Positions 9,279 to 50,559 of a DNA stretch of 64,000 nucleotides are shown piece after piece. Both the position numbers and the translations under genes were made by a program. The stretch is from Dehalococcoidia bacterium (GTDB lineage: Bacteria > Chloroflexota > Dehalococcoidia > UBA2979). The stretch lies in contig OZ252046.1 in assembly GCA_965247895.1 (NCBI GenBank), positions 1,975,155-2,039,154 of the forward strand, read 5' to 3'. The notes under the pieces were generated by a model. That model ran no database searches and had not been told where the DNA came from. It worked only from the letters and a program-made list of their open reading frames with translations. Numbering within the stretch: position 1 is the stretch's first letter; each line of letters opens with the position of its first letter.

Positions 9279-9311
9279 AATCACGGCCTACGTGAACGGT
9301 GCGGGGGCGCG

Positions 9312-9854
9312 ATGACCAAGGTCGAGGGCGAGTACGACATCGAGGCCGTGCGCGCGGAGTGGATCGGCAGGAAGGCGCCGGTCTACCACGGCCGCTACCC
9401 GGTCGAGTACGACCCGATCCGCCGCTACTGCCACATGGTGGAGGACGACAACCCGCTGTTCCTCGATCCGGAGTACGCGGCGACGACGAAGTGGGGCGGC
9501 GTGATCGTGCCGCCCGTGATGACCGACTACTTCGCCGGCAGCGGCGCCTGGCCCGAGGAAGACGAGCCGGTGATCCAGCTCCAGGTGCCGACGCGCGGCG
9601 ACCGCACCATCAACCTCAACGTGAGCTGGGAGTTCATCCAACCCGCCCGCATCGGCGACCGCCTCTCGCGGCAGACGGAGATCGAGGACATCTACCAGAA
9701 GCCGACCCGGCTCGACCCGAAGTCGATCTGGATCGCGACGAAGACGACCATCTCCAACCAGCACGGCGAGGTCCTCGCGATCGGCAGGAACACGATGGTC
9801 GCCCATCGCCGCCCCGAAGAGTTCGCCGGCGAGCTGGACGGGAGCGGCGCATGA
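9312..9854 (+). CDS. MaoC-N-terminal-like hotdog-fold dehydratase subunit (ChsH1/HadA-like)
   Basis: 180 aa; FAS1-like/MaoC-N hotdog pattern. The stop overlaps the next start (ATGA), suggesting translational coupling with a second hotdog subunit. Confidence 0.65.
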   Translation: MTKVEGEYDIEAVRAEWIGRKAPVYHGRYPVEYDPIRRYCHMVEDDNPLFLDPEYAATTKWGGVIVPPVMTDYFAGSGAWPEEDEPVIQLQVPTRGDRTINLNVSWEFIQPARIGDRLSRQTEIEDIYQKPTRLDPKSIWIATKTTISNQHGEVLAIGRNTMVAHRRPEEFAGELDGSGA

Positions 9855-10312
9855 GCGGCGAGCCGCGCGCGCAGCGCTACTGGGACGACGTGACGGCCGG
9901 CGAGGACCTTGAGGGCTTCTCGTTCACACTCGGCTGGACGGAGATGGCGAAGCAGGTCAGCGGCTCGCAGGACTTCCACAAGGTCCATCACGACTTCGAG
10001 TTCGCCCGCGAGGGCGGACACGAGACGATCTTCTTCAACACCGGATTCACGCGCGGCTGCCTGGGACGGATGCTCACGGACTGGATGGGCCCGGAGGGCT
10101 GGCTCAGGACGTTCGGCTTCCAGATGCGGCGCATGAACACGCCGGGCGACGTGATGTCCGTGAAGGGCCGCGTCACCGGCAAGACCGAGGGCGACGATCC
10201 CGCCACGGGCGTTGTCGACATCGACATCTGGATCGAGAACACTCGCGAGGGCGTCACGACGCCCGGCACGGCGACAGTGCTGCTGCCGCGACGCAGCCCG
10301 GCGCAGGGCTGA
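9851..10312 (+). CDS. MaoC-like (R)-hydratase hotdog-fold subunit
   Basis: ATG at 9851 in the same frame as ORF 9299-10312. HKVHHDFEFARE and GFTRGCLG region typical of MaoC dehydratases; forms a pair with the upstream gene. Confidence 0.65.
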   Translation: MSGEPRAQRYWDDVTAGEDLEGFSFTLGWTEMAKQVSGSQDFHKVHHDFEFAREGGHETIFFNTGFTRGCLGRMLTDWMGPEGWLRTFGFQMRRMNTPGDVMSVKGRVTGKTEGDDPATGVVDIDIWIENTREGVTTPGTATVLLPRRSPAQG

Positions 10313-37011: not shown

Positions 37012-37034
37012 GCCGGGCCGCCGCCTGCCCGCCG

Positions 37035-37361
37035 CTACGGCAGCGGCGAGTAGTCGGTCGGCGTGAGGATGTCGGAGCGGATGCGCGTGGTGAGCGAGCC
37101 GTCGCGGTGCGACTCGGCGCGAACGCGTCGCCACTCCTCGTCGGCCCTGAACGAGGCCCACTTGCGGTCGCGATCGGCCATGTCCTCGAACTTCATCAGG
37201 TAGACGAGCTGGTCGCTCCAGCCGCCGTGGCCGTAGGTCCAGAAGCCGACGACGTCCATGCCGTGGTTCGCGAAGATGCGCAGCGTGTGGTCGCGGAAGC
37301 GGGCGTTGAGCTCCGGCATCTTGCCCGGCGCCGCCTCGTAGATTCGCAGTTCGTAGATCAT
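37035..37361 (-). CDS. NIPSNAP-family protein, copy 1 of a tandem duplicate
   Basis: MIYELRIYEAAPGKMPELNARF... dimeric alpha+beta barrel NIPSNAP signature. Confidence 0.65.
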   Translation of the reverse strand: MIYELRIYEAAPGKMPELNARFRDHTLRIFANHGMDVVGFWTYGHGGWSDQLVYLMKFEDMADRDRKWASFRADEEWRRVRAESHRDGSLTTRIRSDILTPTDYSPLP

Positions 37362-37385
37362 CGCTGCTCCTTCCGGCGCGAACCG

Positions 37386-37712
37386 CTACGGCAGCGGCGA
37401 GTAGTCCGTTGGCGCGAGGATGTCCGAGCGGACGCGCGTGGTGAGCGAGCCGTCGCGGTGCGATTCTGCGACGACGCGCCGCCACTCCTCGTCGGCCCCG
37501 AACGAGGCCCACTTGCGGGCGCGATCGGCCATGTCCTCGAACTTCATCATGTAGACGAGCTGGTCACTCCAGCCGCCGTGGCCGTACGTCCAGAAGCCGA
37601 CGACGTCCATGCCGTGGTTCGCGAAGATGCGCAGCGTGTGGTCGCGGAAGCGCGCGTTGAGCTCCGGCATCTTGCCCGGCGCCGCCTCGTAGGTCCTCAG
37701 TTCGTAGATCAT
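37386..37712 (-). CDS. NIPSNAP-family protein, copy 2
   Basis: About 95% nucleotide identity to copy 1, including the RBS (351-bp tandem repeat); start MIYELRTYE inside ORF 37386-37781. Confidence 0.65.
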   Translation of the reverse strand: MIYELRTYEAAPGKMPELNARFRDHTLRIFANHGMDVVGFWTYGHGGWSDQLVYMMKFEDMADRARKWASFGADEEWRRVVAESHRDGSLTTRVRSDILAPTDYSPLP

Positions 37713-37815
37713 CGCTGCTCCTTCCGTGGGGGCGCAGCCGTGCCGCGCGCCGAGGCGACGATACGCGCTCGCGAGGCGCACGGCGAGACGGCGATGGGGG
37801 GTCGCGCCCCCCTGG

Positions 37816-38709
37816 TTACGCCTTCAGCCCGGCGAGATGCTCCGACCCGAACTCTGCGATGAGCTCGGGGGTGCGGTCGATGTGCTCCGGATCAACCCTG
37901 ACGGTCGTGTGCCCCACGCCGGCCTCGGCGAGCCTGTGCATCTCCTCGGCCAGGCGGCCCAGCTCCCCGGCGCTGAGGAAGCCTGCACCGCCGGCGTGCA
38001 GTGTGATCGACGCTGGATCGCGTCCCGCGCGATCGGCGATCTCGCGCACGCGATCCCAGTCCCTCATCGTCTTTTCGAGTGGGCTCCGCGGCGCGGCCAT
38101 CCAGCCGTCGCCGAAGCGCACGGCCCGCTCCATCTGCGGCCGCGTGTCGCCGCCGAACCAGAAGGGGATCGTCCCGGCCGGCCGGGGACGGCAGGTCCAG
38201 CCGTCGACCCGATAGAACTCGCCTTCGAAGTCGACCCAGTCCTCCGACCAGAACGCGCGCAGGAGCCGCAGTGCCTCGTCGGTTCGCCGCCCACGACGGT
38301 CGTACGGGGCGTCCAGCACCTCGAACTCCTCCTCGCACCACCCGACGCCCACGCCGAGGGTGAGCCGTCCGCCGCTCAGCTGGTCGAGTGTCGCGAGCAC
38401 CTTGGCGAGTAGCACCGGCTGCCGCATCGGCAGCACGAGCACCGATGTGCCGAGCCGGATGCGCTCGGTAGCTCCGGCCACGAAGGTCAGCAATGTCAGC
38501 GCCTCGAGCATGACGTCCGGGGGATAGATGGTGCTGTTGATCCCGTCCGCCGCGTACGGGTACGTCGACCGGAACTCCCGAGGCACCACCACGTGGTCGG
38601 CGGCCCACAGCGAGTCGAACCCCGCGGCGTCGGCAGCCTGTGCGCAGCGCAGCACGTGCTGCCTCGTCGCCGTCGGGCCGAACTGCGGGAGCGAGAGCCC
38701 AACCTGCAT
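37816..38709 (-). CDS. LLM-class F420-dependent oxidoreductase
   Basis: MQVGLSLPQFGP start at 38709; LLM motifs (GFDSLWAADHV, LDQLSGGRLTLGVGVGW). Confidence 0.7.
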   Translation of the reverse strand: MQVGLSLPQFGPTATRQHVLRCAQAADAAGFDSLWAADHVVVPREFRSTYPYAADGINSTIYPPDVMLEALTLLTFVAGATERIRLGTSVLVLPMRQPVLLAKVLATLDQLSGGRLTLGVGVGWCEEEFEVLDAPYDRRGRRTDEALRLLRAFWSEDWVDFEGEFYRVDGWTCRPRPAGTIPFWFGGDTRPQMERAVRFGDGWMAAPRSPLEKTMRDWDRVREIADRAGRDPASITLHAGGAGFLSAGELGRLAEEMHRLAEAGVGHTTVRVDPEHIDRTPELIAEFGSEHLAGLKA

Positions 38710-38932
38710 GATCGCCCTGGCTCCAATCGGCGCCGGCGCCCGTATGCGCGGGCCGGCGCTCGGCGAAGTAGCCGTCGCGCGAGAGAGTGGGGCCTGCCAG
38801 CACAGCCCCGGCTGGAACCGCCGCTTGCCGGAGCCGGATTCAGCCACTCCGGGCGAAGCCCCGCTGGATTATAGGTGAGGGCGCATTGCCCCCGCGTCGC
38901 ATCGTTGATATTGCTACCGAAACAGGGGGTGC

Positions 38933-38954
38933 GTGCATCAAGACCCTGTTACCG
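38933..38954 (-). promoter_or_regulatory. candidate operator motif CGGTAACAGGGTCTTGATGCAC (copy 3), embedded in an imperfect palindrome AACAGGG-N16-CCCTGTT
   Basis: 22-bp motif about 225 bp upstream of the LLM gene start. Near-identical to two copies at 40787-40845. Confidence 0.3.
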
Positions 38955-39269
38955 AAGTAGCTGGACGGGCGTTGTGCGGCGGAAAAGTCGAGAGCCGCGC
39001 TCGGTGACCTGCGCGTGCCGTGGAATCCGGCGTGATCGAGGAGAACAAGAAACTGGCCCTCGATGCGCGCGTGGTGAAGCTCAACCCGTTCGAGCTGCGT
39101 CGCGAGCGCGAGCGGCTGCTCGCCCGCCCGTGGGAGTGGGCCGCCACACCCGGTAGCGCCGTTTCGAGGTGCACAGGGGCGGATCGTTGCTGTCGCCGCG
39201 AGGCCTGTGATGATCCGCCTCAACCGTATCCGTCGTCGTGACGCCGACTGCGCCCGGGCGGGGCTAAAT

Positions 39270-40721
39270 CTACTCGGGTGACGGCACGAGTTCGGAGGAC
39301 TCGGCGACGCGGAGCAGTTCTTCGAAGGAGAGGGAATCCGATTCGATAAGCGCGACGACATCACCGTCCCGCCAGAGGAGGCTGAGGACGCCGTTCTCCG
39401 AGTGGCGGTACGCATCATCGAGGTCGGAGTCGACGGCTTGCCAGGAGCCTACCGCCGCAGGGATGCTGCCGTGCCGACGGCGCTGGCGGAGGAGGATGTA
39501 GGCATCTTCCGGAGATTCGAGCAGGACCCAGACGGCGACCGAACCGCAGCCGCCGCCGAGGCTGCCTTCGGCGCCCGCGGCGGTGGAGCGGTAGCCGGCC
39601 GGCGCGTACGAGGGTTGGAGGAAGCCGCGATCGGCGGGAAAGGACATGCTACCGACTGATCTGTGCGAGCTACACGACTGCGCGTCGGAGGACTCGATCT
39701 CGCGCGCGCCGGGTGGTGGATCGAAGTTGAAGCGGCTCGCGTCGATCTCGGCATCGTACGAGAGCGCGGTGACCTCGGCGCGGTAGGACTGGCCTCCGTC
39801 TTCGGCATCAACAGCCCAGCGCATGATGAACATGCGCTCCGGGTCGATGGAGACACGGATGACGCCCCCGGAAGGGTGGCGGAGTTCGACGATCTGCGTG
39901 GTGCGGCCGAGCAGCGTCTCCTCGCCCACGAGGTCGACTTCAGGATAGCCACCACGCTCCCGCCACAGATCGATGAATGCGTCGATGCTTTCAACGCCGG
40001 CGGGACCGACGGGTGCGCTGAAAATGGGAGAGAGCGCCGTGCCCTCCGGCAACACGCCGAAGACGTCGCGCCGGTAGGTGTTCATGCGACCGTCGTATTG
40101 CCAGACGTCGGCGGCGCCGTCAGAGATCGTCAGGATCGTGCCGTCGTCGATGATCGTGCCGTTCGTTTCGATTTCCCAGCGCCAGCGGACGGGGTCCGTG
40201 GCGTGCCACCAGCGGATGACGCTCGCGCCCTCGGCAGAACGGAAGCGGGCGAGCGGGTCGTCACCCGACGGCTCGACATCGAGGGTGATTTCCGCGTAGA
40301 AGCTGGCGGCGCGAGGCGGCTCGTTCTCGGAGGCGCAGGCGAGAGCGAAGCTCCCCGCGAGCAGCGCCGGGAGCAGGAGAGCGAGCCGACGTCCGGTCAG
40401 GATGCCCGCGATTGCGCGTATGCCTCTTGCGCCTCTCACGAAGTGGGCGAGCACCATACCCGCAGCCCATCCGGCAAGGACGGCAACAACGAAGATAGGG
40501 GGCCACGTGTCTGGATTCGGGGCAACGTACAACCCGAGGCTGCGATTGTAGCCAGGGAGAGCGAGGAAACCGCCGCCGACAGCCACTGCTGCGATCGGGA
40601 TCACGGACTGAGTGTTGGCGTCGTCGTCCGACACCTCCGTGTATGCCGACCCGTCGAGGTGCGCCGCTGTCGCGATCCGCCGAGTGAACGTACGCTGCCG
40701 ATCGGACGCCATGCCGAGCAC
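39270..40721 (-). CDS. hypothetical membrane-anchored/lipoprotein-like protein (DUF4367/LolA-like C-terminal region?)
   Basis: Hydrophobic N-terminal segments and a lipobox-like FALAC; no catalytic motifs seen; GC lower than flanks; start uncertain. Confidence 0.4.
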   Translation of the reverse strand: MLGMASDRQRTFTRRIATAAHLDGSAYTEVSDDDANTQSVIPIAAVAVGGGFLALPGYNRSLGLYVAPNPDTWPPIFVVAVLAGWAAGMVLAHFVRGARGIRAIAGILTGRRLALLLPALLAGSFALACASENEPPRAASFYAEITLDVEPSGDDPLARFRSAEGASVIRWWHATDPVRWRWEIETNGTIIDDGTILTISDGAADVWQYDGRMNTYRRDVFGVLPEGTALSPIFSAPVGPAGVESIDAFIDLWRERGGYPEVDLVGEETLLGRTTQIVELRHPSGGVIRVSIDPERMFIMRWAVDAEDGGQSYRAEVTALSYDAEIDASRFNFDPPPGAREIESSDAQSCSSHRSVGSMSFPADRGFLQPSYAPAGYRSTAAGAEGSLGGGCGSVAVWVLLESPEDAYILLRQRRRHGSIPAAVGSWQAVDSDLDDAYRHSENGVLSLLWRDGDVVALIESDSLSFEELLRVAESSELVPSPE

Positions 40722-40786
40722 CGCTTTCGGCTACGCGAGCACCTGGATCACGCTACAAGATCCCAAGTCACTACAGCGCGGATCCT

Positions 40787-40845
40787 CGGTAACAGGATTG
40801 TGATGCACAAATGAGGCACTCCGGTAACACCTGATTCTGATGCAC
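40787..40845 (+). promoter_or_regulatory. two tandem copies of the CGGTAACA-N(6-8)-TGATGCAC motif
   Basis: Copies at 40787-40808 and 40822-40845, 70-130 bp upstream of the CoA-transferase start at 40918. Confidence 0.3.
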
Positions 40846-40917
40846 TGCGGCCCCGGAGACACCGCGACCGGGCGGCGCGCGGCCTGCTACCCTCGGCGCG
40901 CGACGAAGGAGGTTGCC

Positions 40918-42120
40918 ATGGGCGCCGGACCTGCGGCGGGTATGCCGCTCTCCGATCTGCTGGTAATCGACCTCACGCGCGCACGCTCGGGGCCGACCTG
41001 CGTGCGCCAGCTCGCGGACTGGGGCGCCGACGTGATCAAGATCGAGCCGCCGCCCTCCTCGGGCGTGCAGGCGACGATCACCGGCGGGCGGCTCGGCTTC
41101 GACTTCCAGAACCTGCATCGCAACAAGCGCAGCCTCACGCTGGACCTCAAGGCTCCCGAGGGCCGGCAGGTGCTGCTCGACCTCGCGAAGACGGCCGATG
41201 TCGTCGTCGAGAACTTCCGCCCGCTGGTCAAGCAGCGGCTGGGGATCGACTACGAGACGCTGCGCGAGGTCAACCCGCGGATCATCTACGGCAGCATCTC
41301 CGGGTTCGGGCAGAGCGGACCCTACCGCGACCGGCCGGGCTTCGACCAGATCGCGCAGGGCCTCGGCGGCATCATGTCGGTGACCGGCCTGCCGGGGCAG
41401 GGGCCGGTGCGCGCCGGCGTCCCGATCGCGGACCTGAGCGCCGGGCACTTCCTCGCGCAGGGCATCCTGCTGGCGCTGCTGGAACGCGCGCGCTCCGGCG
41501 AGGGCCAGTGGGTGCACACCTCGCTGCTCGAGGCGCAGATCGCGATGATGGACTTCCAGGCTGCGCGCTGGCTGATCGAGCGGGATCTGCCGGGCCAGGC
41601 CGGCAACGACCACCCCACCTCGATCCCCACGGGCGTCTTCTCGACCTCCGACGGCCACATCAACATCGCCGCCTCCGGCCAGCCGATCTACGAGCGCTTC
41701 TGCAAGGCGATCGACGCGCCCGGGCTGATCGAGCACCCCGACTACGCCGACGGGGAATCGCGCTCCGCGAACCGCAAGGCGCTCAACGCCGAACTGTCCG
41801 CGATCACCAGCACGCGCAGCAGCGCCGAGTGGATCGAGGACCTCAACGCGGCGGGCGTGCCCTGCGGGCCGATCTACCGCGTCGACGAGATGGCCGCGGA
41901 CGAGCAGGTGCTGCACCTCGGCATCGCCCGGCCGGCGGCGCACCCCACGCTGGGGGAGATCGAGCTCGTCGGGCAGCCGATGCAGCTCGAGCGCACCTCG
42001 CAACCAGCGCAGATGCGCAGCGCCGCGCCCGCACTGGGCGAGCAAAGTGACGAGGTGCTGACAACCCTCGGCTACGACGACGAGGCGATCGCCGGGCTGC
42101 GCGCCCGCGGCGTCGTCTGA
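40918..42120 (+). CDS. family-III CoA-transferase (CaiB/BaiF type, single domain)
   Basis: GAAGGAGG RBS; LLVIDLTRARSGPTCVRQLADWGADVIKIEPP and IYGSISGFGQSGP motifs. Confidence 0.8.
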   Translation: MGAGPAAGMPLSDLLVIDLTRARSGPTCVRQLADWGADVIKIEPPPSSGVQATITGGRLGFDFQNLHRNKRSLTLDLKAPEGRQVLLDLAKTADVVVENFRPLVKQRLGIDYETLREVNPRIIYGSISGFGQSGPYRDRPGFDQIAQGLGGIMSVTGLPGQGPVRAGVPIADLSAGHFLAQGILLALLERARSGEGQWVHTSLLEAQIAMMDFQAARWLIERDLPGQAGNDHPTSIPTGVFSTSDGHINIAASGQPIYERFCKAIDAPGLIEHPDYADGESRSANRKALNAELSAITSTRSSAEWIEDLNAAGVPCGPIYRVDEMAADEQVLHLGIARPAAHPTLGEIELVGQPMQLERTSQPAQMRSAAPALGEQSDEVLTTLGYDDEAIAGLRARGVV

Positions 42121-42166
42121 GGCGCGACCACCCCGGACGAGCAGCCCTCAGCGGGCCGGAGGAGCG

Positions 42167-42961
42167 ATGGAAACGACGACCGACCAGCTAATCGCCGAGG
42201 TCGAGGACGGCATCGGCTGGCTGACCTTCAACCACCCCGAGCGGCGCAACGCGCTGACGATGGCGATGACGGCCGGGCTGCCGGACATCCTCGAGCAGTT
42301 CGCGGCCGACGACGCGGTGCGCGTGCTGGCGATGAAGGGCGCGGGTGACCGCGCCTTCGTCTCCGGGGCCGACATCTCCGAGTTCGAGCAGCGGCGCTCC
42401 TCGCCGGAGTCGATCGCGAAGTTCGACGCGGCGGGCGCGCGCATGGCGGCATCGTTCGCCGAGTTCCCGAAGCCGATCGTGGCGATGATCCGCGGCTTCG
42501 CGATGGGCGGCGGGCTGATGATGGCGATGCGCGCCGACATCCGCATCGCCGCCGAGGACTCGCAGTTCGGCATCCCCGCCGCGCGCCTCGGGCTCGGCTA
42601 CGGCTACCAGGGCGTCGAGAACCTCGTGAAGCTCGTCGGCCCCGCCTATGCGAGCGAAATCCTGCTCACCGGCGGACGCTTCGACGCGCCGACGGCGCTG
42701 CGCATGGGCCTCGTCAACCGCGTCGTCGCCGTCGAGGATCTCGAGGCCGAGACGCGCGCGGTCGCGGGCGCGATCGCGGAGAACGCCCCGCTCACCATCG
42801 CCGCCCTGCGCGCCTCGATCCGCGAGGCGCTGACGGACCCGGCGCGCCGCGACCTCGAGACGATCACGGAGATGGTCGCCGCCTGCTTCGCGAGCGCGGA
42901 CTACATCGAGGGCCGCCGCGCGTTCATGGAGAAGCGGCGCCCCGAGTTCACGGGGCGCTGA
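42167..42961 (+). CDS. enoyl-CoA hydratase/isomerase family protein
   Basis: Crotonase motifs (AFVSGADISEF, IRGFAMGGG). Confidence 0.8.
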   Translation: METTTDQLIAEVEDGIGWLTFNHPERRNALTMAMTAGLPDILEQFAADDAVRVLAMKGAGDRAFVSGADISEFEQRRSSPESIAKFDAAGARMAASFAEFPKPIVAMIRGFAMGGGLMMAMRADIRIAAEDSQFGIPAARLGLGYGYQGVENLVKLVGPAYASEILLTGGRFDAPTALRMGLVNRVVAVEDLEAETRAVAGAIAENAPLTIAALRASIREALTDPARRDLETITEMVAACFASADYIEGRRAFMEKRRPEFTGR

Positions 42962-42968
42962 GCCGGGC

Positions 42969-43337
42969 ATGCACATCGCGCTGATCGCCCTCGGCGGCGC
43001 GGCGGGCGCGCTGCTGCGCTACGGCGTGAGCGAGTGGGTGACGGCGCCGCGCGGCGGCTTCCCGCTGGCGACGCTGCTCGCGAACATCAGCGGTGCCTTC
43101 CTGCTCGGCGTCGCCTCGCTGCTGCTCGTGCGCCTCGAGGTCTCCACGGCGCTGCGGCTCGGCCTGACCGTCGGCGTACTCGGCGCCTACACCACCTTCT
43201 CCACCTTCAGCGTGGAGACGCTGGACCTGCTCAACGACGGCGAGTGGCGGACGGCCGCGCTCTACGTCCTCGCCAGCGTCGCGGGCGCCCTCGCTGCGGC
43301 GTGGGCCGGGCAGAGCCTCGCGCGGGCGACGGGGTAG
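42969..43337 (+). CDS. crcB: fluoride channel CrcB/Fluc
   Basis: 122 aa, four TM helices, GALLRY and TTFSTFS signature motifs. Confidence 0.8.
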   Translation: MHIALIALGGAAGALLRYGVSEWVTAPRGGFPLATLLANISGAFLLGVASLLLVRLEVSTALRLGLTVGVLGAYTTFSTFSVETLDLLNDGEWRTAALYVLASVAGALAAAWAGQSLARATG

Positions 43338-43405
43338 GGGGGCAGTTGCTGCTACTGGCGGGCGCAACGTGCTCTTGACCCCTCTCTCCACACAATAGTA
43401 TCGTT

Positions 43406-43852
43406 GTGTATGTGATACCAGAATTCGAAGCTGGCGGACTCCTCCCACCCGGAGTCCACTGGGCGACCTGGGACGAATTAGTCGAGAGATTCGGGACGAA
43501 CCCGTGGAGGCAACACCTCTTGACCGGACTCAGAGCCGCACTGGAGAACCTGCAAGTCGCGGGCTGCCGGACCGTCTACCTCGACGGGAGCTTCGTGACG
43601 AGCAAGGCGGTCCCGAACGACTACGACGCCTGTTGGGAAGAGGCAGGCGTCGATCCGGATGTCCTCGATCCCGTTCTCCTGACCTTCGACCCCGGGCGAG
43701 TGACGCAGAAGGCCAAGTACCTGGGGGAGTTGTTCCCTGCGTCGTTCGTCGCCGATCAGGACGGGCTGTCGTTCCTTGAGTTCTTCCAAGCGGACAAGGA
43801 CTCCGGGGAGCCCAGGGGGATCATCGCGATAGACCTGGGAGGCCGCATGTGA
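43406..43852 (+). CDS. minimal nucleotidyltransferase (MNT/pol-beta superfamily; DUF6932-like?)
   Basis: GS-x9-DxD motif (YLDGSFVTSKAVPNDYD) typical of pol-beta-type NTases. 148 aa; low-GC leader; stop overlaps the next start (ATGTGA). Confidence 0.5.
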   Translation: MYVIPEFEAGGLLPPGVHWATWDELVERFGTNPWRQHLLTGLRAALENLQVAGCRTVYLDGSFVTSKAVPNDYDACWEEAGVDPDVLDPVLLTFDPGRVTQKAKYLGELFPASFVADQDGLSFLEFFQADKDSGEPRGIIAIDLGGRM

Positions 43853-44259
43853 TCAAGAACGAGCGCCAATACCGGATCACCAAGACCCAGGCGACCCGCT
43901 TCGCGCAGACCCTGGAGAGCCTCGCGAGGCGCGCCGACGAAGACTCGGGGATTCACCCCCGTATCGCCCAGGCTCGGGAGGACGCGCTGAGAAGCCAGCT
44001 CGGAGACCTTGAACGGGAGTTGCGCGAGTACGAGTCCTTGAAGGCGGGTGGATTCGAGCTCGACGAACTGAACGTGTTCGCTGAGCTGGCAACGTTCCTG
44101 ATCAAGGCACGGATCGCGCGGGGCCTGAGTCAAAGGGAGCTGGCGGACCGCATCGGGTTGAAGGAACAGCAGATCCAGCGCTACGAGGCCACCGATTACG
44201 CATCCGCCAGTCTGGCCCGGATCAAGGAGGTCGCGAGCGCCCTGGGCGCGACTGGCTAG
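43849..44259 (+). CDS. XRE-family HTH protein with N-terminal coiled-coil region (candidate partner of the NTase)
   Basis: C-terminal HTH_3 signature (RGLSQRELADRIGLKEQQIQRYE); translationally coupled to the upstream NTase. Confidence 0.55.
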   Translation: MIKNERQYRITKTQATRFAQTLESLARRADEDSGIHPRIAQAREDALRSQLGDLERELREYESLKAGGFELDELNVFAELATFLIKARIARGLSQRELADRIGLKEQQIQRYEATDYASASLARIKEVASALGATG

Positions 44260-44260
44260 C

Positions 44261-44366
44261 CCCGCGCAGCCGCCACCCCGTACAGCAGCCCCTCCACCTC
44301 CCGAGGCGGCCGCCCAGCGCCGCTCCGGGGCGACGGGGAGCGGGGCGCAGACGTCGATCTCGGTGA
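44261..44366 (-). pseudogene. remnant of the 3' end of an LLM oxidoreductase gene (paralogous to the end of 48681-49571), internally deleted
   Basis: 44277-44307 and 44315-44360 match 48703-48733 and 48821-48866 (CGTACAGCAGCCCCTCCACCTCCCG..., GCTCCGGGGCGACGGGGAGCGGGGCGCAGA.GTCGATCTCGG.GAAGTCGCGG). Confidence 0.55.
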
Positions 44367-44375
44367 AGTCGCGGC

Positions 44376-44596
44376 CTGCTGCTCGTGCGCCTCGATGTCT
44401 CCACGGCGCTGCGGCTCGGCCTCACCGTCGGCGTGCTCGGCGCCTACACCACCTTCTCGACCTTCAGCGTGGAGACGCTGGACCTGCTCAGCGACGGCGA
44501 GTGGCGGACGGCCGCGCTCTACGTCCTCGCCAGCGTCGCGGGCGCCCTCGCGGCGGCGTGGGCCGGGCAGAGCCTCGCGCGGGGGGCGGGGTAGGG
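44376..44596 (+). repeat. direct duplicate of the crcB 3' end (copy of 43119-43340), giving a 69-codon crcB fragment
   Basis: About 95% identity over 222 bp; the two copies flank the NTase/HTH cassette and the LLM remnant. Confidence 0.75.
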
Positions 44597-44646
44597 GTGC
44601 CGGCTAGAGCATCGTCGAGGTCAGCGCCGAACGGCGTCGCCGACGG

Positions 44647-47600
44647 TCAGTAGTTGCCCAGGAAGACGATCGTCCCCTCGGCCGTCACTGCCGCGGTGTG
44701 GTAGTGCCCGGCGCTCACGTCGATGAAGGAACCCTCGGGCAGTGAGTTGGTATCGAAGGAGTCATCGAGCCAGCACTCCACGGCGCCCCCGGCCGCCGCG
44801 CCGCAGGTGAGAGTCGGCCCCGCAGTCCTGTAGGGAAAGTCCTTGCCCCAGCATCTGATCGAGCCGTCCGCCTTCACGCCGCAAATGTGCGTCTTAGCCG
44901 AGCTGATCGATGTGAACGTGCCAGCGGGAGGCGTGGTCCGGTCGGAAACGTGCGGGGGGCCCCAGCACGAGATGGTGGCGTCGCTTCTCAACCCGCATGA
45001 ATGCGAACCACCAACCGCGACCGCGGTAAACGTCCCGTCCGGGGGCGTGATCCTGTTGCTGTCGTAGATGTCGTAGCCCCAGCATGCGACGGAGCCGTCG
45101 GTCCGCACTGCGCATGAGTGGTCTTCTCCAGCGCTGACGGAGCTGAAGGAGCCGTCCGGCGACGCAGTCCGGCCGTAGGCGCTGCTACCCCAGCATGTCA
45201 GTTCGCCGCTGGTTCTCACCGCGCAGGTGTGTACTTTTCCGGCGCTGATGGAGACGAACGTGCCGTCGGGCTCAGCAGTCTGACCCCTCTTCCCCCAGCA
45301 GTCGACCGAGCCGCCGGTTCTCAGTCCACACGTGTGGTACTGCCCGGCGCTGACGGCCGTGAAGGATCCCCCGGGCGGGGTGGCTTGCCCGATGAACTCG
45401 CCCTCGAGGTTCTGGTCTGAGCCCCAGCACTCGATCGCGCCGTCTGTCATCAGCCCACACGTATGGTGCTCGCCGGCGCTGACGGAGATGAAGGACCGAG
45501 TTGCGGAACCGGCCTCCCGATCCACGGTTCCAGCGGCCGAGTCGCCGGCGGCGGGTGAGCCCGTCGCGGAGAACGAGGGCTTCGACAGGATTGAGTCCAG
45601 GCCCCAGCACGCGACTGTTCCATCGGGTCGGAGGCCGCACGTGTGGCGCCACCCGGAGGTGACCGATGTGAAGGAGCCCCCGGCCGGTTCGGCCAGACCG
45701 CCGGGTTCGAAGTCTCGGGCCTCCTCAAGAGTCCAACACACGACCGAGCTGTCGGTCATGACCCCGCAGGTACCGGCCAGCCCGGCGCTCACGGATGTGA
45801 AGGGGCCGGGATGGAACGTCGTTACCTCGGTGTGGTTGTGAGGCTTCCAGCAAATCACCGAGCCATCCGTGAGCACCCCGCAGGCATGGAAGAACCCGGA
45901 GCTGATGGATATGTATCGACCCTCGGGCGTCTCCTCGGGGTCGGCCGTGTCGAAGCCCCAGCATGCCGTGGAGCCGTCCGCTCTCAATCCGCAGCTGTAG
46001 TTAGCGGCGCTGAGCTCGATGAAGGATCCATCCGGCGGCGACGTCAGGCCGTTCTGATCAGGACCCCAGCAGGTGACCGAGCCGTCTGCCTGGATCCCGC
46101 AGCTGTGAAACCATCCGGCGCTGACGGCCACGAACGAACCCGAGGGCGGCGTTGCCCGCCCCGCGAACTCCCCGTCCCGTCCCTCGTTGGATCCCCAGCA
46201 CAGCACGGAACCGTCGGTCCGCACGCCACAGGAGTGCTGCCGTCCGGCGCTCACGGCCGTGAAGGAACCGCCGGGCGGCGTGGCCTGACCCAGGCGATCA
46301 TCGCCCCAGCATGCGACGGCCCCGTCGGTCCGTACCCCGCAGGTGTGGTAGAACCCCGCGCTCACCGAGGTGAACGACCCGGCAGGCGGCGTGGCCTGCC
46401 CGTAGTCCGCGATGTTCCAGCAAATCAGCGAGTCGTCCGTCCTCACACCGCAGACCTGGTCCGTTCCCGCGCTCACCGAGCGGAAGGGGCCATCGGGAGC
46501 GGTGCCCAGGCGATTGAGGTCGAGCCCACCGCCTTCGGAGGGAACCCAACACGTCACAGAGCCGTCGCTTTGCAGCCCACACGAGTAGAAGTCGCCGGAA
46601 CTGATGGATGTGAACGAACCCGCGAGCGGTGTGTGTGGGCCAAGGTCGTCGCCCCAGCACACGACGGAGCCTTCCGTGTCGAGCGCGCAGGTGTGTCTCT
46701 GCCCGGCGCTGAGGGCCGTGAACGACCCGGTTGTGGGTGCATCGCGCTGGCGGTAGTAGTTGTCTCCCCAGCAGGTGATCGAGCCGTCGCTCCGCAGCCC
46801 GCAGCTATGGATCCACCCGGCGCTGACGGAGGTGAACGTGCCCTCGGGCGCTGACTGCTGCTCTTCGCCCCAACACACGACCCGGCCGTCGCCCCTCACC
46901 CCGCAGGTGTGAGCGTCTCCGGCGGCGATCGCAACAAAAGCCTCGACGGGTGGCGTGGCCTGCCCCTTGAAGTACCCCGCACTGTCGTTCGATCCCCAGC
47001 ATGCGACCGAGCCGTCGGTTTGGATGCCGCAGGTGTGATGGAGCCCGGCGCTGACGGAGACGAAGGAACCGGGCGGCGGGGTGGCCTTGCCGACAAAACC
47101 GCCGTCCTCGTCCAGGTTGGAGCCCCAGCAGATGACCGAGCCATCGGTCTTCACGCCGCACGCGTGATCCCTCCCGACGGTGACGGACGCGATGGACCTT
47201 GCAGTGGGACGAGGCGTAGGCAGGACGCGGGGCGTCGCGGCGGGTTCTGCCGTGGACTCCGGTGCCGCCGTCCCTTCCGGCACGGACCCGACCTGCTGGT
47301 CGCCGCCATCGAGCGTGGCGAGGACGAGCAGCACTACCACCACTATAACCACAACGACCGAGCCGCCCAGCGCCGCGCCCGTCCACACGAGCGGACGCCC
47401 GAGAGATTCGAGCGTCGCAGGCAGAGCGATGAACCCGAGCACGCGCCGGCGCTCGGGACGCCAAGCGGCGAGCTGCTCGCGGTTGTCGAGCTCGAGCTTC
47501 CCGAGCATGTTCGAGATGTGGTACTTGACGGCGTCGAGGCTGACGCCGAGTCGCTCCGCGATCTCGGCGTTCGTGCCGCCCTTGCGCAGCTCGTTGAGCA

Positions 47601-47664
47601 CGCGCTGCTCGGCGGGGGTGAGGATCTCGGGATGGGGTGGGCGTCCCCGCCCTCGGCGTGTCAT
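44647..47664 (-). CDS. membrane-anchored LuxR-family regulator: N-terminal GerE/LuxR HTH, one TM helix, ~22 tandem RCC1-like (RCC1_2-type, ~38 aa) repeats
   Basis: HTH: TPAEQRVLNELRKGGTNAEIAERLGVSLDAVKYHISNMLGKL. TM: VVVVIVVVVLLVLATL. Repeat unit: ATPPxGSFTSVSAGxxHTCGLRTDGSVxCWGxN..GQ, with 114-bp DNA periodicity from ~44700 to ~47200. Confidence 0.7.
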   Translation of the reverse strand: MTRRGRGRPPHPEILTPAEQRVLNELRKGGTNAEIAERLGVSLDAVKYHISNMLGKLELDNREQLAAWRPERRRVLGFIALPATLESLGRPLVWTGAALGGSVVVVIVVVVLLVLATLDGGDQQVGSVPEGTAAPESTAEPAATPRVLPTPRPTARSIASVTVGRDHACGVKTDGSVICWGSNLDEDGGFVGKATPPPGSFVSVSAGLHHTCGIQTDGSVACWGSNDSAGYFKGQATPPVEAFVAIAAGDAHTCGVRGDGRVVCWGEEQQSAPEGTFTSVSAGWIHSCGLRSDGSITCWGDNYYRQRDAPTTGSFTALSAGQRHTCALDTEGSVVCWGDDLGPHTPLAGSFTSISSGDFYSCGLQSDGSVTCWVPSEGGGLDLNRLGTAPDGPFRSVSAGTDQVCGVRTDDSLICWNIADYGQATPPAGSFTSVSAGFYHTCGVRTDGAVACWGDDRLGQATPPGGSFTAVSAGRQHSCGVRTDGSVLCWGSNEGRDGEFAGRATPPSGSFVAVSAGWFHSCGIQADGSVTCWGPDQNGLTSPPDGSFIELSAANYSCGLRADGSTACWGFDTADPEETPEGRYISISSGFFHACGVLTDGSVICWKPHNHTEVTTFHPGPFTSVSAGLAGTCGVMTDSSVVCWTLEEARDFEPGGLAEPAGGSFTSVTSGWRHTCGLRPDGTVACWGLDSILSKPSFSATGSPAAGDSAAGTVDREAGSATRSFISVSAGEHHTCGLMTDGAIECWGSDQNLEGEFIGQATPPGGSFTAVSAGQYHTCGLRTGGSVDCWGKRGQTAEPDGTFVSISAGKVHTCAVRTSGELTCWGSSAYGRTASPDGSFSSVSAGEDHSCAVRTDGSVACWGYDIYDSNRITPPDGTFTAVAVGGSHSCGLRSDATISCWGPPHVSDRTTPPAGTFTSISSAKTHICGVKADGSIRCWGKDFPYRTAGPTLTCGAAAGGAVECWLDDSFDTNSLPEGSFIDVSAGHYHTAAVTAEGTIVFLGNY

Positions 47665-47711
47665 GGGGTAAGCCTAGAACCCCGCGCCGCGATTTTCCCT
47701 ACCCGGCGGGC

Positions 47712-48333
47712 CCCCTCACCCCCGCCCTCTCCCGCAAGGGGAGAGAGACACCCCATGGTGCTAACTGGTCAAGCGGCGAGCTGCTCGCGGTCGTGCCGGT
47801 GCGCCCAGGCGGTGGCCTCGTCGTAGCAGGTGCGGGTCCTGAGGCAGCCGTGGAGGTAGCCGACGAGGCGGTTGGCGAGGGCGCGCAGCGCCTGGTGGTG
47901 CAGGTCGCCGGCGGCTCGCCGCCGCTGGTAGAAGTCGTGGCAGCCCGGGCTCGCCCGCAGCGAGCAGAGCGCCCAGCGGTCCGCGGCGTCGGCGAGCCAG
48001 CGGTTGCGCACGAAGCGGGCGCGCACGGTGCGTTTGCGTCCCGATGCTACGGTCAGCGGCGAGGTGCCGGCGTAGTTCCTGCGGGACTTCGCCGACTCGT
48101 AGCGTTCGGGGTCGTCCCCGAACTCGCCGAGCACGACACCGAGTCCGGGCAGGGAGCGGTAGATCGCGGCGTCCGGGTGCTGCTCAAAATGGCTCGCGAG
48201 CTCGGCCTCGAGCTCCTTGATCTGACGGTTGATCTCGCCGATCTGACCGACCGTGGCGCGCGTGCTCGCGGCGAACGCTCGGCTTACCGCGGGCGGCGCC
48301 CCGAGCTGCGGGGAGCGCAACGCCGCGCGGACC
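47712..48333 (-). mobile_element. truncated, diverged second copy of IS-A (3' ~620 bp only) with the transposase pseudogene 47769-~48333
   Basis: Same right end as the 20337 copy. Encodes the C-terminal ~185 aa of the transposase with small indels relative to the complete copy. Homology stops abruptly at ~48333. Confidence 0.7.
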
Positions 48334-48393
48334 GCGCCGTGTCTTGACCTTCTTGTGCTCGTACTCGACGCTGCCGAACGAACGCTGCTGCAT
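48334..48393 (-). mobile_element. fragment of an IS5-family transposase N-terminus
   Basis: MQQRSFGSVEYEHKKVKTRR matches the conserved IS5-family transposase start (...SF.D.EY..KKK.TRRE.FL...); truncated by the IS-A fragment. Confidence 0.45.
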
Positions 48394-48466
48394 GGGGCGC
48401 CCCTCTCCGGGTCCGCGTCCCATGATCGCATCCGCTCACCCGCTCAGGCGAGTTGTTCAGACCATC

Positions 48467-48658
48467 CCTAATGGAACAGTGCTCTCGGGCACGACACCCC
48501 ATGAGTGCTGCGGACCACCCGGACGTACCAGCCGGGGCACGGTCTCTCCCAAGAGATCCCGAGGTCTCAGGGAGCCACAGTGCTCACCAGCCGGCCGGTC
48601 CGGGACCAGTCTCCCAGATCGCTCCGGGGTTCCGGTCGAACCCCATTAGGGAGCCGGA
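48467..48658 (-). mobile_element. MITE-like internal-deletion derivative of IS-B (left ~45 bp fused to right ~145 bp)
   Basis: 48467-48510 matches 21677-21720 and 48511-48658 matches ~23250-23397; retains the CCTAATGG/CCATTAGG terminal inverted pair. Confidence 0.6.
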
Positions 48659-48680
48659 GGGGAAGTGGGGTCTGCCGGCG

Positions 48681-49571
48681 CTAACCCCGCGCTACCGCGA
48701 CCGCGTACAGCAGCCCCTCCACCTCCCGCGGCGGGAGCGCAGGGCCGGGGGCGAGCAGGCAGTGCGTGACGCCCGCGTCGCCGAGGGCGGACGCGGCTTC
48801 GAGGATGGCGGCGGCGGGCTGCTCCGGGGCGACGGGGAGCGGGGCGCAGATGTCGATCTCGGCGAAGTCGCGGGCGGCGGCCTCGCAGGCCGCGCGGGCT
48901 GCGCCGACCGCCTCGGCGGTGTCGGCAGCCGAGGCGGCGTCGAGGATCAGGCCCGAGCCGCTGGAGGCGAGGCGGGCGAGGGCGCTCGGGCCCTCATCGC
49001 GGACGTAGATCGGCGGGTGCGGCTTGCGCACCGGCTTCGGGTAGGCGCCGATGTAGCCGAAGCGGATGAAGCGGCCCTCGAAGCTGCTCGGGTCGTCACT
49101 CTCGCGCCACAGCTCGCAGCAGATCGCGAGCCACTCGTCGGTCACCTCGGCGCGCGGCTCGTAGTACTCGTCCACGTCGAGCGCGGCGAACTCGCCGCGG
49201 GCGGCGTCCTCGGAGACGCCGAAGAGCAGCCGGCCCTTCGCGATGCAGTCGAGCGTGCTGATCGCCTTCGCGAGGAAGACCGGGTTGCGCAGCGGCAGCA
49301 CACAGTCGAGCGTCCCGATCTCGATGCGCTCGGTCTGCGCCGCGATGCCGCCCAGCAGGGCGATCGGCTCCAGCACCTCCTCGCGCCAGGCGGAGGGCCC
49401 GCCCTCGCCGCGCATCGGCGTCGCGAGGCGGTCGGAGGCCCAGACGGAGTCGAAGCCGAAGCGCTCGGCCGCCTCGGCGAGGGCCACGAGCGCCGAGGCG
49501 TCGAGGGCGCGCGCGGGTCCGGCGGCGTTGGGAAGCAGCAGTCCGAAGCGCATCGGCGTCACCCCGCTCAC
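48681..49571 (-). CDS. LLM-class F420-dependent oxidoreductase
   Basis: LLM motifs (GFDSVWASDRL..., LDCIAKGRLLFGV). Confidence 0.7.
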   Translation of the reverse strand: MSGVTPMRFGLLLPNAAGPARALDASALVALAEAAERFGFDSVWASDRLATPMRGEGGPSAWREEVLEPIALLGGIAAQTERIEIGTLDCVLPLRNPVFLAKAISTLDCIAKGRLLFGVSEDAARGEFAALDVDEYYEPRAEVTDEWLAICCELWRESDDPSSFEGRFIRFGYIGAYPKPVRKPHPPIYVRDEGPSALARLASSGSGLILDAASAADTAEAVGAARAACEAAARDFAEIDICAPLPVAPEQPAAAILEAASALGDAGVTHCLLAPGPALPPREVEGLLYAVAVARG

Positions 49572-49578
49572 CGGCCGC

Positions 49579-50559
49579 TCACGCGAAGGCCGGCAGGATC
49601 TCGTCGGCCATCAACTGGATGCCGCGCATGATCCGCTCGAAGGCGGGCTCGCGGCCCTCGACGCGCGGCAGCGTCATGAAGTGGCGCACGCCGGCCTTCG
49701 CGAACTGGCGCATGTCGGAGACGATCTCGTCCGGCGTGCCGCTGCCGAGCTGCCGTTCGCCGTCGCGGCGGCCGTTCATCTGGAAGCGCAGGCCGTGCGC
49801 GCCGGTCGAGCTGAGCAGCCAGTTCTTGGAGACCTCGATCTCCTCCGGGTCGCGGCCCTCGGCGACGCAGATGCGGCGAAACTCGGCGATGCGCCCGGTC
49901 AGCTCCTCGATCGTGTCGCCGGTGCAGTCGAAGCCCTGGCCGAGGCGCACGGCGCGGCGCATGGCGGCGCGGCTGTGTCCGCCGATCACGATCGGCGGGT
50001 GCGGCTTCTGCAGCGGCTTGGGGTAGGCGCCGACGTTCTCGAAGTTGACGAACTCGCCGTGGAAGCTGGACGGGCCGGTGCTGGTCCACAGCTCCTTGAT
50101 CGCGCGCAGGTACTCGTTGGTGACGGCGCCGCGGCGGGGGAAGTACTCGGGCGGCAGGTTGACCGCCGCGAACTCCTCCTCCATCCAGCCCAACCCCGCC
50201 CCGAGGGCGAGCCGCCCGCCGGAGAGGTGGTCCGTCGTCGCCAGCATCTTCGCGAGCACGACGGGGTGGCGCAGCGGGATGATCAGCACGCCCTGGTGGA
50301 GGATCACGTGCTTCGTGCGCACCGCGAGCGCGTTGAGCAGCGTCAGCGGCTCGTAGACCGGGTACTGCCAGCGCGTCGCGCCGCGGCGGTCGGTGTGGGC
50401 ATCGTCGTAGCCGATCTGCGCCGGCAGCACGACGTGGTCGCCCATCACGAGCGAGTGGTAGCCGAGCGCGTCGGCGGCCTCGCCGATCTCGATGCAGCCC
50501 TGGACGCCCACGCTCTGTCCGAGGTTGCCGACGTTGGAGACGGAGATGCCGAACTTCAC
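49579..50559 (-). CDS. LLM-class F420-dependent oxidoreductase
   Basis: MKFGISVSNVG..., LSGGRLALGAGLGW motifs. Confidence 0.75.
   Translation of the reverse strand: MKFGISVSNVGNLGQSVGVQGCIEIGEAADALGYHSLVMGDHVVLPAQIGYDDAHTDRRGATRWQYPVYEPLTLLNALAVRTKHVILHQGVLIIPLRHPVVLAKMLATTDHLSGGRLALGAGLGWMEEEFAAVNLPPEYFPRRGAVTNEYLRAIKELWTSTGPSSFHGEFVNFENVGAYPKPLQKPHPPIVIGGHSRAAMRRAVRLGQGFDCTGDTIEELTGRIAEFRRICVAEGRDPEEIEVSKNWLLSSTGAHGLRFQMNGRRDGERQLGSGTPDEIVSDMRQFAKAGVRHFMTLPRVEGREPAFERIMRGIQLMADEILPAFA

Follow-up and report, generated by a model that had tools for sequence, protein, structure and literature searches.

Why should the end of an intact gene reappear, almost unchanged, 1.26 kb further on, behind two small genes and a fragment of a third? 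This question is raised by the locus of crcB, a fluoride-channel gene, in an uncultured Dehalococcoidia bacterium (Chloroflexota, UBA2979; assembly GCA_965247895.1, contig OZ252046.1), which lies in the 64,000-nucleotide stretch that we analyzed (positions 1,975,155 to 2,039,154; hereafter the window, whose own numbering is used below). The repeated crcB end stands between crcB and a gene for a luciferase-like monooxygenase (LLM), and an initial annotation, made from the sequence alone, had taken the arrangement for the scar of an integrated or captured mini-element. Comparison with related genomes leads to another answer. In our view the repeat is most plausibly the scar of a recombination by which one hotspot of variable genes became two cargo slots.

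We compared the region 42000-50000 with itself and aligned the two copies of the repeat pairwise. The self-comparison recovered a two-copy direct repeat of 225 nt (copies A and B, Table 1), with 96% identity, nine mismatches and no gaps, and in the alignment the similarity breaks off sharply at both edges of each copy. A 59-nt probe taken from the repeat matched the window twice, at copies A and B, where no match was expected by chance. The announced duplication is thus real, if slightly larger than the 222 bp at about 95% identity first reported: copy A consists of the final 219 nt of crcB and of 6 nt, not 3, beyond its stop codon. The crcB gene itself is intact, as had been stated, and copy B (crcB') lacks the 5' part of the gene and covers positions 46-102 only of the CRCB profile. 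Between the copies lie a lower-GC leader, a DUF6932 gene, a helix-turn-helix (HTH) gene of the HTH_3 family and, on the minus strand, a remnant of the LLM 3' end (LLM'). The low GC content of this cassette was rightly noted (0.60-0.67 versus 0.71-0.76 in the flanks). The LLM remnant also exists, with limits that had to be moved from 44261-44366 to 44256-44375 (120 nt); it matches at about 85% the 3' end of the intact LLM gene over 48681-48881, and not only to 48866 as first given, with a 74-nt internal deletion in LLM'. Its stop codon overlaps that of the HTH gene (CTAG, 44256-44259). The new joint, LLM'|crcB', falls at 44375/44376, so that the duplicated unit (43119-44375, 1.26 kb) is arranged head-to-tail with a single novel joint.

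Related loci were collected in two ways. GTDB species representatives were scanned with the enoyl-CoA hydratase (ECH) protein, which gave four close relatives: three Dehalococcoidia metagenome-assembled genomes (MAGs), L002, L003 and L004, and a Chloroflexi MAG, L005, whose bin is presumably sponge-derived. Their ECH identities to the window are 98%, 94%, 88% and 87%, respectively. Exact or near-exact CrcB proteins led to nine further loci in ENA and NCBI assemblies (L001, L162-L166 and L170-L172), and each of the resulting 13 related loci was compared with the window by BLASTN. JGI metagenome contigs scanned with CrcB yielded relatives at 55% identity or less, none of them from this lineage.

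The crcB-LLM gap proved to exist in several states. It is empty in L170, where crcB and LLM converge 63 bp apart and the spacer contains a GC-rich hairpin. The ancestral crcB-LLM junction, which the initial annotation had suggested seeking in related genomes, was thereby recovered, and this comparison was the decisive one. Other cargo stands between the two genes in L164, with an open reading frame (ORF) for a 261-aa membrane protein, and in L165, with degraded non-coding sequence. L003 and L004 hold the cassette only: crcB, DUF6932, HTH and an intact LLM gene follow one another, with a single crcB end and no gene of the LuxR-RCC1 type found in the window, and the HTH stop codon overlaps the LLM stop codon in the same CTAG as in the window. 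In the rearranged loci L005 and L166, unrelated genes follow crcB. Finally, the two-slot layout crcB-cassette-LLM'|crcB'-variable cargo-LLM is a derived state shared by seven assemblies, namely the window, L001, L002, L162, L163, L171 and L172. All these versions diverge within a few bases 3' of the crcB stop codon (TAGGGG...; for example at 43341 and 44598 in the window). In the cassette-bearing alleles, the cassette stands exactly in place of the 63-bp spacer. Some relatives have nothing between these core genes and others have unrelated cargo there: the crcB-LLM gap is a variable-gene hotspot in this Dehalococcoidia lineage.

Two simple explanations can be set aside on this basis, both of which had been named as possible refutations of the first reading. 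If copy B came from a collapsed or duplicated region of the assembly, the two copies would not be expected to differ at nine of 225 sites and to have different flanks; moreover, six further independent assemblies, drawn from several samples and including megabase long-read contigs, show the same layout, and we consider an artefact practically excluded. The presence of two functional crcB paralogues is rejected as well, full-length crcB being single-copy in every relative and crcB' only a partial gene.

Because L003 and L004 carry the cassette at the exact site, with an intact LLM gene and no repeat, the cassette is older than the duplication. LLM' is what originally followed the cassette at its junction with LLM. 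The duplication was only found in genomes with a second cargo segment after crcB'. These findings bear directly on the mini-element of the initial annotation, according to which the cassette and the LLM fragment would have integrated site-specifically into the crcB 3' end, leaving the repeats as attL and attR. A long duplication of a target-gene end with restoration of the gene is indeed typical of such elements, and the lower GC content, the great abundance of the cassette family and its recent exchange between strains would all suit one. However, a cassette that occupies the same place in L003 and L004, next to one crcB end and an intact LLM gene, is not delimited by the repeat. The repeat ends at arbitrary positions inside crcB, and the supposed right attachment boundary is not constant, since three different joints are found among the carriers. 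No integrase was detected in a Pfam scan of all ORFs of 40840-50559, in agreement with the initial annotation; the sole recombinase-type match was the truncated IS110 transposase (47769-48431), which lies 3.5 kb away and is missing in four other carriers. We therefore regard a site-specific element as very improbable. The order of events proposed with it, an integration followed by insertion of LuxR-RCC1 and insertion sequence (IS) material between the LLM remnant and its gene, cannot explain why crcB' stands between these two, though the later and variable nature of that material is borne out by the differing content of the carriers. IS110 was also considered as the cause of the duplication and ruled out, again for its absence from four carriers.

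How, then, did both flanks of the gap become duplicated? The origin that we consider somewhat more probable than the others taken together is a one-step composite of two alleles, formed by a homologous and an illegitimate crossover, of the unequal-crossover type or of the type known as homology-facilitated illegitimate recombination (HFIR); the single step between two alleles is our inference. The ancestor would already have contained the cassette, in the order crcB, DUF6932-HTH, LLM, and would have met a second version of the locus with the order crcB, LuxR-RCC1, hairpin, LLM. The homologous crossover would have taken place within a flank or outside it, and the illegitimate one would have joined the 3' part of LLM to the middle of crcB. 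The product would have both flanks duplicated, crcB - cassette - LLM' | crcB' - cargo 2 - LLM, with the first crcB and the last LLM intact. HFIR has been demonstrated experimentally (PMC3240628) and has been proposed for orphan arrays at type VI secretion system (T6SS) and Rhs loci (Kirchberger et al. 2017, PMC5361080). No integrase is necessary for the repeat.

Four observations suggest two alleles. Slot 2 keeps beside LLM a hairpin of the type found in the empty site, which is missing from the L003-type, cassette-only allele: the structure CCCTCTCCC-loop-GGGAGAGGG, with shared flanks, precedes the LLM stop codon, and its like stands beside LLM in L170. Slot 2 shows no trace of the cassette; self-comparison of 44601-48680 gave no remnant of it, the second copy holding LuxR-RCC1 and IS110 instead. 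LLM' and LLM share only about 85% identity, as against 96% for the crcB copies. Finally, the B copies retain ancestral sites. The ancestral G at position 116 of the unit is kept in the B copies of the window, L002 and L162, and that of L162 also retains the ancestral CCG at positions 30-34, while all A copies are derived at both sites.

The same layout could have arisen in two steps, by tandem duplication of the 1.26-kb crcB3'-cassette-LLM3' unit in an L003-type genome and subsequent replacement of the second cassette by LuxR-RCC1 through the crcB' and LLM arms. In formal terms, the layout is that of a head-to-tail duplication with a single novel joint, the unit can stand in tandem, as L172 shows, the cargo of slot 2 has demonstrably been swapped among carriers, and copies A and B have derived sites in common when compared with L003. 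Such a course would require two events, however, and the same unseen donor allele besides. Its predicted intermediate was not found, L172 with its three crcB ends being the product of a later unequal crossover, and the absence of a cassette remnant from slot 2 and the far greater divergence between LLM' and LLM than between the crcB copies also speak against it. We hold the two-step origin for a real possibility, clearly less probable than the single step. The flanks do not separate the two: in BLASTN comparisons, those of the carriers and of L003 are equally similar on both sides.

Several points weigh against the one-step composite. None of the 13 related loci shows the second allele that it postulates (crcB-LuxR-RCC1-LLM without the cassette), and a search that used the LuxR N-terminus brought up a large family of paralogues but no such locus. 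In most genomes both crcB copies share derived sites as compared with L003; gene conversion or a very closely related donor is therefore required. The history of the crcB copies has been obscured by gene conversion. The joint of the window is without clean microhomology, and the three joints could in principle be independent events. The hairpin, finally, is a low-copy dispersed element that also occurs near NIPSNAP genes in relatives; having been tried as a marker of an ancestral empty-type allele, it was downgraded to a weak marker of ancestry once the same kind had been found elsewhere in relatives.

The three joints differ in where crcB' starts, at crcB nt 151, about 131 or 113. In the window, L001, L163, L171 and L172, crcB' runs from nt 151 and LLM' measures 120 nt. 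In L002, crcB' starts about 20 nt earlier, LLM' is shorter and a microhomology AGCGG is possible; in L162, crcB' runs from nt 113, LLM' has only about 74 nt and the joint shows a 5-nt microhomology, GGCGA. The internal deletions of LLM' also differ between the window type and L002. One could assume that three separate illegitimate events had produced the same layout, the more so as the joints differ on both sides and two of them show microhomology. But the carriers share the cassette allele, the LuxR N-terminus with its upstream region (85-91% identical) and the flanks, and the type of joint tracks overall relatedness; deletions spanning the original joint are the simpler account. Recurrent formation thus appears to us highly unlikely. 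The joints have been eroded since the founding event, and lineage-specific deletions across a once larger joint fit better than three origins, because joint type tracks relatedness. The present joints may be secondary deletion endpoints.

Once doubled, the locus continued to recombine. The number of differences between copies A and B within one genome is 2 in L001, 3 in L163, 8 in the window, 11 in L002, 13 in L162 and 16 in L171, and signature sites that stand in copy B in L162 stand in copy A in L171: sequence passes between the two crcB ends. L172 has the order crcB, cassette, LLM', crcB', cassette, LLM', crcB', LLM, with three crcB ends, and its crcB3'-cassette-LLM' unit is amplified in tandem (7105-8626 matches 8361-9879). 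Such an array is what one expects if copy B of one chromosome crosses over with copy A of another, an exchange whose reciprocal outcome would be to remove the cassette cleanly and leave crcB restored. The middle crcB' of the array (L172:8370-8621) has an in-frame 42-nt insertion and forms an 83-aa ORF.

The cassette has also been transferred between strains. Among carriers it is 98-100% identical, versus 94-97% for the flanking core genes. The window and L171 differ at only two sites over 1.1 kb (43296-44395), versus about 4 per 100 nt outside this tract, which runs from the final 45 nt of crcB through the leader, the two cassette genes and LLM' into the first 20 nt of crcB', and so ends inside the repeats. 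In L001, the cassette is a broken mosaic (L001:7351-8375) in which blocks identical to the window alternate with unalignable ones, some of them matching the slot content of L165; the flanks of L001 are 97% identical and the coverage of the contig is 5x. Either the mosaic is a genuine recombinant pseudogene or the assembly is at fault here.

The crcB' frame is open over 69 codons (44385-44594) in seven of seven carriers. Its ratio of nonsynonymous to synonymous polymorphism (pN/pS) is 0.21, similar to that of the functional A ends (0.15), and the adjoining LLM' gathers deletions. One would wonder whether crcB' serves as a 69-aa two-helix peptide or as a second crcB paralogue under selection. 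Against this stand the lack of the first 53 residues (profile positions 1-45), a start at an internal Val codon with no promoter-like site upstream, and the fact that no relative has two full crcB genes here. A low pN/pS is also to be expected from variation imported from functional crcB alleles by conversion, which is the explanation we prefer and which is supported by the swapping of signature sites between A and B positions. A function of crcB' itself seems to us barely probable. A more speculative idea, to which we give a lesser but real chance, is that the crcB ends act as built-in homology arms and make DUF6932-HTH a portable cassette, lost, doubled or moved by homologous recombination without a recombinase. 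The two cassettes of L172, the tract shared by the window and L171 with its ends in the repeats, and the selection-like conservation of crcB' would all fit. If this were true, the duplication would be maintained because it mobilizes cargo, and would not merely be decaying.

What does the older slot contain? Its two genes overlap by 4 nt (GTGA), so that the translational coupling first proposed holds. A promoter-like site at 43375-43404 (TTGACC at 43375) is the only one in 43200-44700, where none was expected, and directly after it a palindrome, ACACAA-N8-TTGTGT (43390-43409), overlaps the DUF6932 start codon. The palindrome is kept in L003 and L004 although the rest of the leader differs, and it is probably the operator of the HTH protein, as judged from the sequence. 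The HTH protein is 100% identical in L002, L162 and L163 and 98% in L003. DUF6932 has more than 2000 homologues, hundreds of them at 70-80% identity; exact look-ups of the window DUF6932 protein, of P0044 (crcB' at 88%) and of P0138 gave no match. The first gene had been labelled a nucleotidyltransferase, a label of which only the motif stands: G61-S62...D72-x-D74 is invariant in 27 homologues and fits the minimal nucleotidyltransferase motif G-[GS] x9-13 D-x-[DE], but sequence and profile searches against the PDB gave no significant match and the AlphaFold model is poor (pLDDT 50.5), too low for a fold search. No paper in the literature collection searched names DUF6932. The protein matches the PADLOC model PDC-M63A (2.9e-10); the HTH protein matches other HTH models and no PDC-M63B model. 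In the one reported test, PDC-M63AB had no defence activity (bioRxiv 10.1101/2024.12.20.629700). With a small enzyme-like gene, an HTH gene coupled to it in translation and a promoter overlapped by a palindrome, DUF6932-HTH looks like an autoregulated toxin-antitoxin or defence-type module.

Slot 2 is the variable one. In the window it holds a 1005-aa LuxR-RCC1 gene and a truncated IS110, in L163 a 690-aa LuxR-RCC1 gene and, at the same place as in the window, an intact IS110 (352 aa, L163:13839-14897), and in L162 a 650-aa LuxR-RCC1 gene. The LuxR-RCC1 gene of L002 is split by an IS21-type element with istA- and istB-like ORFs (L002:13049-15483), L001 has degenerate fragments and slot 2 of L172 is nearly empty. 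In L171 the LuxR N-terminus is followed by a 441-aa AriA/PtuA-like ATPase and a 294-aa ORF without family match (L171:3868-6070), with no RCC1 repeats. This ATPase matches PADLOC AriA (1e-24) and PtuA models as well as Pfam AAA_21 and AAA_15, and the two ORFs look like a defence-type gene pair. The annotation matches of the cargo as a whole are thus PDC-M63A, AriA and PtuA in L171, IS110 and IS21; LuxR-RCC1 is not a defence gene. The LuxR N-terminus, with its HTH and transmembrane parts, is a member of a large family of paralogues, in which it is joined to RCC1, leucine-rich or fibronectin-type repeats, and the RCC1 proteins of this locus range from 650 to 1005 aa among strains. IS110 sits in the 3' arm of the GC-rich hairpin adjoining LLM and is not present in L001, L002, L162 and L171; the hairpin is unbroken beside LLM in L162, L002 and L171.

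The features of the window are collected in Table 1. An Rfam search of 38000-50000 found no fluoride riboswitch and no other RNA family. Elsewhere in the window (37024-37738), tandem units, each about 350 bp long, have as their counterparts in relatives NIPSNAP-domain genes, which number 2 to 4 among the related loci.

Table 1. Features of the crcB-LLM region, in window coordinates.
Feature	Positions	Strand	Basis or remark
CoA-transferase gene	40840-42120		ORF listing and Pfam
Enoyl-CoA hydratase (ECH) gene	42167-42961		ORF listing and Pfam; 7 nt ahead of crcB
crcB, intact, 122 aa; left core gene of the hotspot	42969-43337	+	Pfam CRCB 4.2e-29
Repeat copy A	43119-43343	+	Self-comparison, alignment
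Cassette leader with promoter-like site and palindrome	43344-43405	+	Motif scan, sequence
DUF6932 gene, 148 aa; slot 1 cargo	43406-43852	+	Pfam PF22014 5.2e-39
XRE-type HTH gene, 136 aa; slot 1 cargo	43849-44259	+	Pfam HTH_3 2.7e-10
LLM' remnant, 3' end of an LLM gene	44256-44375	-	120 nt; aligned to intact LLM
Repeat copy B (crcB'); left boundary of slot 2	44376-44600	+	Alignment, partial CRCB profile
LuxR-HTH/transmembrane/RCC1-repeat gene, 1005 aa; variable slot 2 cargo	44647-47664	-	Pfam GerE, RCC1_2 x16
Left part of GC-rich hairpin, split by IS110	47715-47750	none	CCCTCTCCC-GCAA-GGGGAGAG
IS110-family element, 5'-truncated, boundaries approximate; ORF 47769-48431	47751-48655	-	Pfam Transposase_20 only
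LLM (luciferase-like monooxygenase) gene, intact; right core gene of the hotspot	48681-49571	-	Pfam Bac_luciferase 3.9e-39
Second luciferase-like monooxygenase gene	49579-50559	-	ORF listing and Pfam

These related uncultured genomes preserve intermediate states in which a small hotspot would have been doubled by one illegitimate joint and then evolved by erosion, gene conversion, unequal crossing-over and exchange between strains, the scar now promoting loss, gain and exchange of the cassette. A word of caution follows for annotation: a duplicated gene end is not always the footprint of an integrase. The crcB-LLM gap is also a place to seek accessory and candidate defence genes in these Dehalococcoidia. 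The case is new for this uncultured lineage, the type of event is already known and no new mechanism is put forward.

Parallels can indeed be drawn with several known systems. Hotspots of defence and accessory genes between conserved core genes have been described for the pangenomes of E. coli and Pseudomonas. Here too, two core genes flank an empty site or differing small cargo, including a PDC-M63A-like PADLOC candidate, an AriA/PtuA-like ATPase pair and IS elements; the differences are the uncultured Dehalococcoidia host, a eukaryote-like RCC1-repeat regulator as part of the cargo and the doubling of the hotspot. Genomic islands and other integrative elements can duplicate the 3' end of their target gene, be it a tRNA, tmRNA or protein-coding gene. 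As in such islands, a direct repeat of a gene 3' end brackets foreign DNA of lower GC content and the target gene is intact. Unlike them, the present locus has no integrase, a cassette that occurs without the repeat in L003 and L004, a varying boundary and a repeat joined to an LLM fragment. With tandem segmental duplications it shares the head-to-tail unit, the one novel joint and the variation in copy number (L172), but its two copies hold different content.

The locus can also be set beside HFIR, as outlined for transformable bacteria and for conjugation in E. coli (PMC3240628; de Vries and Wackernagel 2002 and Prudhomme et al. 2002, as cited in PMC5361080). In both cases one homologous anchor and one illegitimate joint would suffice to insert DNA without a recombinase, and short microhomology may be seen at the joint (GGCGA in L162, possibly AGCGG in L002, none clear in the window). 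The difference is that only the presumed product is seen here, with joints eroded since and the donor allele not found. Finally, the locus can be compared with the arrays of orphan gene ends at Rhs, contact-dependent inhibition (CDI) and T6SS effector-immunity loci (PMC5361080). Where those arrays have the constant part of a toxin gene as anchor, the anchor here is the end of crcB, an unrelated gene of housekeeping type; the duplication extends to both flanks (LLM' and crcB'); the newer cargo lies downstream, with the older beside the intact gene; and the cargo is not an effector-immunity pair. Several features are common to the two. A conserved anchor is repeated ahead of successive cargo, intact before slot 1 and truncated before slot 2 in the seven assemblies, with three crcB ends in L172; older cargo stands beside newer cargo, together with truncated relics of gene 3' ends and without an integrase, and the content varies among close strains.

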